Positions 60,574 to 61,371 of a stretch of 64,000 nt of DNA are shown here, piece after piece. Source of the stretch: Dictyostelium discoideum. Lineage: Eukaryota. The stretch covers positions 4,608,001-4,672,000 of the forward strand of contig CM000154.2 in NCBI GenBank assembly GCA_000004695.1, given 5' to 3'. A program made the position numbers and the translations under genes. Position 1 is the first letter of the stretch. The number at the start of each line of letters is the position of its first letter. The notes below the pieces were generated by a model. The model had not been told where the DNA came from, did no database searches, and saw nothing but the letters and a program-made list of their open reading frames with translations.

Positions 60574-61371
60574 TTATCTATACCATTGCACAAATTTTTT
60601 ATATTTATTTGAATCCATTAATTTTTTAAATTCATCAGGCTTAGAAACCTTAAATTTAACCATCCAATTATTTGCTGGGTCTTCATTTAACAAGGATGGT
60701 GATTTTTTCAATTTTTCATTTACTAAATATTATTTTAAAAATAATTAAAATTAATAAAAAGATGGAAATTTTATATTAAATAATAAAAAAAGGTAAATAC
60801 CTTCTAAAACTTCACCAGAAACTGGGGCATACAAACCGAAAGCAGTTGCATTAGAACTTTCTAGTACTCCAAACTTTTCTTCTCTTCTACATTTTCTATG
60901 TTCTTTTGGTAGCTCTACATAGTTAATTTTTCCCAATCTTTGAGCACCAAAAGAAGATAACTATTAAATAATTAAAAAAAAAAGTAAAAAAAAAATAAAT
61001 AATAATATATTATTAATAAATAAATTCATTTTTATTATTATTATTATTATCATTATTATTATTATTATTATTATTATTATCATTATTATTATTATTTTTA
61101 TTATTATTATTATTATTATTATTATTATTATTATTATTATTATTATTATTATTATTATCATTATTATTATTATTATTATTATTATTATTATTATTATTAT
61201 TATTATTATAATTATTTTTATAATTACCCCAACAGTTGCAACCTTATTGTCATCTGATAATTTAACCCATTCTAATTCTGCTGAATAATGGGTACAAAAT
61301 GCTCTAATTCCAACTTTACTATAAATACCCGATACAAGAGATTGTTTAATTCCAGTCTTTATGATATTCAT
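60574..61371 (-). CDS. Glycine-cleavage-system H-protein paralog with 3 exons: 61228-61371, 60807-60963 and 60574 to about 60738.
   Basis: LEWVKLSDDNKVATVG|LSSFGAQRLGKINYVELPKE...FGVLESSNATAFGLYAPVSGEVLE|VNEKLKKSPSLLNEDPANNWMVKFKVSKPDEFKKLMDSNKY aligns along its full length with GCSH (EWVTTENGIGTVGIS..., [32 protein letters not shown]..GW). Intron 1 contains a long (ATT/ATC)n. Confidence 0.7.

Follow-up and report, generated by a model that had tools for sequence, protein, structure and literature searches.

The gcvH2 locus and its gene model

The window analyzed here, a stretch of 64,000 nucleotides of Dictyostelium discoideum DNA with a GC content of 22%, contains on its minus strand the annotated gene gcvH2 (DDB_G0290845), in a region with clear GT..AG introns (Table 1). 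A gene model built by GT..AG splicing reproduces the database protein: the coding sequence is 453 nt long after splicing, and its product of 150 aa is residue-for-residue identical to the D. discoideum AX4 protein (XP_635521.1 / EAL62017.1 / UniProt Q54FI0). The spliced model replaces a bacterial-style list of open reading frames (ORFs), in which the gene was split and intron 1 was read as poly-Ile. A preliminary description of this DNA had reported a paralog of the glycine cleavage H-protein without its lipoyl-lysine at 60807..60963; this span is essentially exon 2 (60960..60801), one of the three exons. The nucleotide string on which that description relied, gaaagttctaatgcaactgct, does lie at 60861..60841 of the minus strand, with the AAT codon at 60852..60850, and the corresponding peptide, ESSNATAFGLYAPVSGEV, is present exactly in the spliced 150-aa product.

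Table 1. Position of gcvH2, its parts and the neighboring ORFs in the window
Feature	Position	Strand	Description
gcvH2, whole gene	60574..61371	-	ATG to TAA stop; 3 exons and 2 introns; spliced translation identical to XP_635521.1/Q54FI0
Exon 1	61228..61371	-	Codons 1-48; presequence and start of the GCV_H domain (HYSAELEWVKL...VATVG); tblastn 100%
Predicted mitochondrial presequence	61297..61371	-	Residues 1-25; R-3 motif RAF-CT at its end
Intron 1	60961..61227	-	267 nt, GT..AG, 3% GC
(ATT)66 microsatellite	61028..61226	-	Near-perfect; most of the length of intron 1
Exon 2	60801..60960	-	160 nt; codon 49 to the first base of codon 102; central beta-sheet and former lipoyl hairpin
Beta-hairpin	60829..60876	-	Residues 77-92 (KFGVLESSNATAFGLY); from AlphaFold2 secondary structure and profile alignment
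N-x-T motif	60844..60852	-	Residues 85-87
AAT codon	60850..60852	-	Asn85 at the lipoyl-lysine position; from the spliced model and HMMER/profile alignments
Intron 2	60723..60800	-	78 nt, GT..AG, phase 1, 9% GC
Exon 3	60574..60722	-	Rest of codon 102 to residue 150 and TAA; C-terminal helices of the H-protein fold
DUF4419 ORF (397 aa)	36529..37722	-	Tandem paralog of the next ORF
DUF4419 ORF (407 aa)	38192..39415	-	Tandem paralog of the preceding ORF
Trp_halogenase ORF (603 aa)	39665..41476	-	Near stlB
stlB (2813 aa)	44972..53413	+	Steely-type StlB
825-aa ORF	56736..59213	+	Between stlB and gcvH2
118-aa ORF	62841..63197	+	Upstream of gcvH2, divergent

UniProt already gives Q54FI0 the name 'H-like protein gcvH2'; both the gene and its 'H-like' status are thus already in public databases, and the departure from the canonical motif is reflected in that name. 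Literature searches on Dictyostelium gcvH2, on DDB_G0290845 and on Lys-less H-protein paralogs returned nothing specific, neither a knockout phenotype nor a publication. The present analysis adds the depth of conservation down to D. purpureum, the strong purifying selection, and the loss of arm-cradle residues together with the lysine. It also adds a second Lys-less paralog in tandem with gcvH1 and a reciprocal protein pattern in late development, the latter drawn from a published supplement.

The surroundings of the gene offer several observations in their own right. The D. discoideum intron 1 is 267 nt long, vs. 80-130 nt in the sister species. About 7 kb from gcvH2 lies a large ORF that combines KS-AT-DH-ER-KR-ACP with a C-terminal chalcone/stilbene-synthase (type III PKS) domain, the Steely-type StlB (pks37, DDB_G0290853), whose product, in the life-cycle proteome considered below, is detected only in fruiting bodies, late like gcvH2. 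The nearby ORF with a Trp_halogenase (flavin-dependent halogenase) domain is presumably chlA, the DIF-1 chlorinase, which would make the window a DIF-1 biosynthesis neighborhood. Each of the two tandem paralogous ORFs has a full-length DUF4419 match (~340 bits). The 825-aa ORF carries DUF7035/DUF7034/DUF7949/ComC supersandwich domains and a C-terminal transmembrane segment; a similar gene comes after gcvH2 in D. dimigraforme, and in D. citrinum the next called downstream gene is a PKS. The 118-aa ORF is devoid of Pfam matches; at the corresponding place in the three sister-species loci there is a gene of 99-119 aa with the same orientation. No tRNA gene or Rfam family was found in a scan of the window, and a sigma-70 promoter/terminator scan gave 29 sites vs. 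33 expected, which is uninformative for this eukaryote.

Family membership and overall fold

The H-protein is the shuttle of the glycine cleavage system. In eukaryotic mitochondria, it is also described as the hub of, or entry point to, the lipoylation relay (Arabidopsis GCS-H2 preprint). The gcvH2 product is a member of the GCV_H superfamily: its score against the Pfam family GCV_H (PF01597) is 111.8 bits, with residues 28-147 covering profile positions 2-120 of 122, and the match is far above chance because the cut-off is 22.2 bits. Since a canonical H-protein gene, gcvH1, with the motif ESVKAAS, exists separately in the same species, the status of H-protein paralog first given to gcvH2 holds.

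The AlphaFold2 model, computed from a 72-sequence alignment, has a mean pLDDT of 86.5, with 119 residues above 90. In H-proteins, the fold is a hybrid barrel-sandwich with a hairpin, followed by C-terminal helices. When the model was compared with the PDB by Foldseek, the top 22 matches were all H-proteins or GcvH-L, and the best of these had an rmsd of 1.0-1.9 Å and a TM score (target) of 0.88-0.93; for human GCSH in the LIAS complex, bovine 3KLR and pea 1HTP, the rmsd was about 1.0 Å and the TM score (target) about 0.9. The likeness to canonical mitochondrial and related H-proteins (GcvH1, human GCSH, pea, Escherichia coli) extends to sequence identity (35-46%), to size, and to the E-x-E-W, PVSG-x-V-x-E-x-N and GW motifs, all kept in gcvH2; its predicted presequence, of a cleavable type and with an R-3 motif, is also similar. 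What sets gcvH2 apart from them is the replacement of Lys by Asn, a hairpin turn with one additional residue, the loss of the equivalents of E. coli His13, Ser67 and Asp68, and a score below the equivalog cut-off of the family, each of which is considered below.

The N-terminus of gcvH2 has the composition of a mitochondrial presequence, with four Lys or Arg and no Asp or Glu in residues 1-25, and it shares the RAF-CT motif with the validated targeting sequence of GcvH1; residues 1-24 have a pLDDT below 50 in the AlphaFold2 model. On the strength of these sequence features, gcvH2 is predicted to be imported into mitochondria like GcvH1.

The lipoyl site

The minus strand reads GAA AGT TCT AAT at 60861..60850, and the residue encoded by AAT is Asn85 in precursor numbering. 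Solved H-proteins from Thermotoga, mouse, human, bovine, pea and E. coli match gcvH2 at E = 5e-23 to 5e-17 (HMMER), with S-N-A-T-A-F-G of gcvH2 opposite V-K-A-A-(gap)-S/A-D/E. A profile was also made from canonical relatives only, and all retrieved sequences were aligned to it. Both alignments place Asn85 in the lipoyl-Lys column, in agreement with the preliminary description, and both have one inserted residue (T87). This column is Lys in all 236 canonical sequences, and in 156 of the 185 aligned domains of the closest relatives. In the AlphaFold2 model, predicted strands (residues 77-83 and 89-92) flank a turn (residues 84-88) that is one residue longer than in canonical H-proteins, a layout that would put Asn85 at the hairpin tip. 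The turn contains no Lys and there is none between residues 78 and 104; the nearest, K77 and K105, are 8 and 20 residues away from Asn85, and the tryptic peptide is FGVLESSNATAFGLYAPVSGEVLEVNEK.

In lipoyl domains, the Lys at the tip of the hairpin is the sole residue that ligases and octanoyltransferases modify. Established lipoyl-domain biochemistry thus predicts that gcvH2, which lacks this residue, cannot be octanoylated or lipoylated, and therefore that it would neither shuttle the aminomethyl group among the P, T and L proteins nor serve as a donor in the lipoyl relay.

Asn85 belongs to a conserved N-x-T motif, which is NAT in D. discoideum and its relatives and NRT in D. purpureum. Formally, this is an N-glycosylation sequon, probably meaningless in a mitochondrial protein, and N-glycosylation was set aside because the N-terminus looks mitochondrial, unlike a signal peptide.

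More generally, the absence of this Lys from H-like proteins is not rare: of the 176 GCV_H domains other than gcvH2 in the 150 closest relatives, ~20 (~11%) have no Lys in this column, and several of them are in multidomain proteins. Examples are a protein of 502 aa from a Logan assembly, which carries three GCV_H domains of this kind, a presequence-bearing, eukaryote-like protein of 142 aa (ENA), and, in the primate Pygathrix, a GCSH-like model that reads ESVNAAS and is possibly a processed pseudogene.

Other altered residues

The first description of the locus held that the rest of the fold is well conserved. This is true of the H-protein fold itself, which is kept according to AlphaFold2 and Foldseek, but three of the residues in contact with the arm are altered, as is one acidic residue of the surface, and the protein falls below the threshold of the GcvH equivalog. 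These changes emerged from a column audit in which positions at least 70% conserved in the 236 canonical H-proteins were compared with five gcvH2 orthologs. Most core positions are kept in all five: the E-W of the HEW motif, G, LG, LP, the E-S before the Lys, then Y-x-P-V-S-G-x-V-x-E-V-N, L, P, N, W, K, E, L and Y. The changed columns lie in clusters; they are, besides the lipoyl position itself (Lys, 100% conserved, to Asn85), a His (98%) that is Leu33, a Ser (78%) that is Phe89, an Asp/Glu (96%) that is Gly90, a Val (91%) that is Asn61, and the acidic residue of LG(D/E) (98%) that is Lys59, a reversal of surface charge.

In E. coli, molecular dynamics and mutagenesis have identified Glu12, His13, Glu14, Ala66, Ser67, Asp68 and Tyr70 as the residues that hold and release the aminomethyl-lipoyl arm (PMC7733448). 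They map to E32, L33, E34, A88, F89, G90 and Y92 of gcvH2, so that four of the seven residues of this cradle are kept (E32, E34, A88, Y92), whereas His13, Ser67 and Asp68 have been replaced by Leu33, Phe89 and Gly90 in all five orthologs. The scores against the GcvH equivalog model TIGR00527 (cut-off 115.85 bits) are in line with this pattern: GcvH1 passes with 146.8 bits, but none of the Lys-less proteins does, as gcvH2 scores 105.0, its ortholog in D. purpureum 109.4 and the second Lys-less paralog 88.0. Because the defining Lys is absent, the arm cradle is incomplete and the equivalog score is too low, gcvH2 is judged not to be a functional equivalent of GcvH. Nor is it a member of two other models, as it scores 51.3 against TIGR03077 'not_gcvH' (cut-off 144.05) and 23.8 against GcvH_rel_desulf (NF045810; cut-off 150).

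Two known systems deserve comparison. The bacterial GcvH-L of Streptococcus pyogenes and Staphylococcus aureus (PDB 5A35) and the proteins of TIGR03077 resemble gcvH2 in being H-protein paralogs outside the glycine cleavage system, and the GcvH-L fold matches the gcvH2 model with a Foldseek E of 3e-8. Unlike gcvH2, GcvH-L is reportedly a lipoylated carrier regulated by ADP-ribosylation, and so keeps its Lys. The eukaryotic ABITRAM/Simiate (FAM206A), proposed to derive from the H-protein and to have a role outside the glycine cleavage system, is pan-eukaryotic, nuclear/cytoskeletal and about 20% identical to H-proteins (PMC3859600). A conserved C-terminal hydrophobic/acidic cluster characterizes its family. 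In contrast, gcvH2 is a recent offshoot of group-4 dictyostelids, with 35-46% identity and a mitochondrial-type presequence; the comparison with Simiate was made by description, and the reported ~20% identity of Simiate to H-proteins argues against placing gcvH2 in that family (PMC3859600).

Conservation and selection

The motif ES(S/T)NATAFGLYAPVSGEV is common to three further D. discoideum assemblies and to D. cf. discoideum, D. citrinum and D. dimigraforme. The ortholog in D. purpureum, DICPUDRAFT_87860, which is 63% identical to gcvH2, reads LDGSNRTVFGLYAPVSG at this site, where both the Asn and the extra residue recur. Conservation in other dictyostelids, a check called for when the site was first described, thus extends for both the Asn and the insertion to independent assemblies of five Dictyostelium species. 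The upstream synteny with zmpste24/Peptidase_M48 is kept in the sister-species loci, and the exon structure is the same in three sister species, with both intron positions and the 160-nt exon 2 conserved.

Pairwise dN/dS of gcvH2 among four species is 0.06-0.16, with dS of 0.26-0.79. The codon of Asn85 is AAT in all four species for which DNA is available, a single third-position change away from a Lys codon, and the adjoining codons vary synonymously across orthologs (GCA/GCC, ACT/ACA, TTC/TTT, TTG/TTA). These data show that gcvH2 is under strong purifying selection and that its altered hairpin has been conserved from D. discoideum to D. purpureum.

They also bear on the idea that the missing Lys is an artefact of sequencing, assembly or annotation, that is, a wrong base or a missed Lys exon, to which we attach a negligible probability. 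No points in its favor were found. A sequencing error is ruled out because the same motif recurs in AX4, in the other D. discoideum strains and in the other species down to D. purpureum, with synonymous changes in the flanking codons. An alternative Lys-bearing exon, the other escape initially considered, is excluded as well, since the codon falls in the middle of its exon, both introns consist of low-complexity sequence (3-9% GC) that cannot be translated, and no hairpin-like motif is nearby: a six-frame scan of 59500..62500 (~1 kb around the gene) found no alternative hairpin-like segment, and tblastn of the whole window found no GCV_H segment besides gcvH2.

In a HMMER search of 1.84 billion representatives, only the cluster of gcvH2 itself was below 1e-30. 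The orthologs found belong to group-4 Dictyostelium only, and the function of gcvH2 is therefore not a general requirement.

Paralogs and origin

The canonical H-protein of D. discoideum, GcvH1 (DDB_G0287773), is a gene distinct from gcvH2; it has been studied as a cannabidiol target, its mitochondrial targeting sequence has been validated, and its lipoyl-site motif is ESVKAAS (PMC7024701, PMC7109396). Its 146-aa sequence was rebuilt from the locus of a D. discoideum strain (L004, 7039..7758): it starts with MLKTLRF, contains ESVKAAS, and agrees with the published primers in having DHEW at residues 30-33. The comparison of gcvH2 with the other gcvH paralogs of the genome, suggested from the outset, separated it from this canonical gene and also revealed a second Lys-less GCV_H gene (AX4 DDB_G0287771; L004, 6001..6719), in tandem with gcvH1 and 320 bp upstream of it. 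Its hairpin reads GSP(D/N)S(T/I)K: the Lys column is occupied by Asp or Asn, and a Lys appears three positions further on (+3). The AX4 model of DDB_G0287771 (115 aa) and a strain model look truncated or mis-spliced when compared with the 163-aa product.

The family of this second gene resembles gcvH2 in the absence of the lipoyl-Lys, in having LGK for LG(D/E) and Asn for Val, and in the kind of presequence, but it differs in its low identity to gcvH2 (~36%), in having no hairpin insertion, and in its C-terminal extension. Both of its introns match those of gcvH1 in position and phase, whereas the introns of gcvH2 are elsewhere. In neighbor-joining analysis, gcvH2 and the second Lys-less family group together with a bootstrap of 52%, and there is no support for a single dictyostelid clade; at this level of support, the Lys may have been lost once or twice, and the duplications may have followed more than one order. 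All three proteins have a basic, acidic-free N-terminus with R-x-(F/Y)-(C/S)-T just before the domain. This common N-terminus and the spliceosomal introns favor duplication within dictyostelids over gene transfer. Horizontal transfer had been considered, as the top non-dictyostelid matches are metagenomic/bacterial, and was rejected as the leading idea in view of the introns, the presequence and the FCT(R/H)Y(S/T) junction common with GcvH1.

Expression through the life cycle

A life-cycle proteome published in 2026 provides, in its supplementary tables, data on both proteins (PMC12821622). In both replicates, the gcvH2 protein was undetected in vegetative, aggregation and mound samples, whereas its level in culmination and fruiting-body samples was 1.0-3.6e7, and its stage-vs-rest logFC values were -3.9, -2.1, -3.3, +5.1 and +4.2 (adjusted P 4.5e-4; PMC12821622). 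GcvH1 followed a reciprocal course: it was abundant until culmination and then dropped ~1000-fold in fruiting bodies (logFC -9.4), so that gcvH2 appears late as GcvH1 falls. GcvP was present at all stages, and GcvT showed a late rise (+2.7, +2.0; PMC12821622). This proteome consists of two replicates and is label-free with imputation, and the GcvH1/gcvH2 'switch' may partly reflect extraction, because many mitochondrial proteins fall in the fruiting-body sample (PMC12821622).

A candidate role for gcvH2 and its alternatives

Taken together, these observations make it probable, though well short of certain, that gcvH2, an expressed and conserved H-protein copy without lipoyl-Lys, serves in late development as a non-catalytic mitochondrial pseudo-carrier, acting by protein binding. 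Such a pseudo-carrier would engage other proteins through the conserved surface of the H-fold and would occupy or stabilize the partners of GcvH1, either the other proteins of glycine cleavage (P, T and L) or the lipoylation enzymes (LipB/LipA/LIPT1). This would take place in late development, when GcvH1 is gone while the P and T proteins persist, and glycine cleavage or lipoyl transfer would as a result be kept off in differentiating or dormant cells. The least certain part of this proposal, put forward tentatively and with rather less than even confidence, is that gcvH2 binds the H-protein partners when GcvH1 is withdrawn and silences or parks the system in terminally differentiating cells. 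Against it, the altered flanks of the hairpin and the D/E to K59 replacement may equally mean that the canonical partners are no longer bound.

The main alternative is that gcvH2 is an H-fold put to a new, moonlighting use, its partner lying outside both glycine cleavage and lipoylation, the fold being a scaffold and the hairpin, SN-x-T-x-FGLYAPVSG, a new binding site. Such neofunctionalization is possible without being the likelier course, and we find it about as plausible as the binding of H-protein partners by a pseudo-carrier. The lineage-specific conserved substitutions gather on and around the hairpin, together with the charge reversal at K59, and the position of gcvH2 below the equivalog cut-off points the same way; Simiate provides a precedent for an H-protein-derived protein with a role outside glycine cleavage, and the Lys-less GCV_H domains that make up ~11% of the closest relatives, often within multidomain proteins, indicate that the fold has been reused repeatedly. 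Yet the presequence of the GcvH1 type is kept, which would probably place gcvH2 in the compartment of the glycine cleavage system, Glu32, Glu34, Tyr92 and most of the canonical surface-defining residues are retained, and the identity to canonical H-proteins is 35-46%, vs. about 20% for Simiate.

Two further readings fare much worse. One holds that gcvH2 is still a working cofactor carrier, in which another residue (K77 or the Asn) is modified or another prosthetic group is used; the intact fold, including Glu32 and Glu34 of the arm cavity, and the location of Asn85 within the conserved N-x-T (NAT or NRT) are compatible with it. We consider it very improbable: the turn is without Lys and the nearest lysines are 8 and 20 residues off, whereas a Lys at the hairpin tip is indispensable for lipoyl and biotinyl ligases alike; the equivalents of His13, Ser67 and Asp68 are lost; and N-glycosylation is absent from the mitochondrial matrix. 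The other, a decaying and functionless duplicate, or unitary pseudogene in the making, could draw on the loss of a residue essential to the ancestral function and on the lineage-restricted distribution, but it is effectively refuted by the dN/dS of 0.06-0.16 across four species, by the conservation of reading frame, intron positions and synteny, by the existence of the D. purpureum ortholog, and by the detection of a developmentally regulated protein.

A stronger form of the pseudo-carrier proposal casts gcvH2 as a dominant-negative carrier whose deployment is tied to development. At culmination, the Lys-less mimic would replace GcvH1, either on the persisting P and T proteins or on the relay of LipB, LipA and LIPT1. 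One-carbon flux in mitochondria, the lipoylation of proteins, or both would in this way be kept shut down until germination in spores or stalk cells. We regard this scenario as unlikely; if true, it would amount to a metabolic switch operated by swapping a carrier for its dead paralog.

As a conserved, expressed and presumably non-lipoylatable paralog in a tractable organism, gcvH2 would be a natural 'dead carrier', and could reveal functions of H-proteins that are independent of the lipoyl arm. The reported cellular target of cannabidiol in D. discoideum is GcvH1 (PMC7024701), and gcvH2 is also a possible confounder or modifier in studies of GcvH1.
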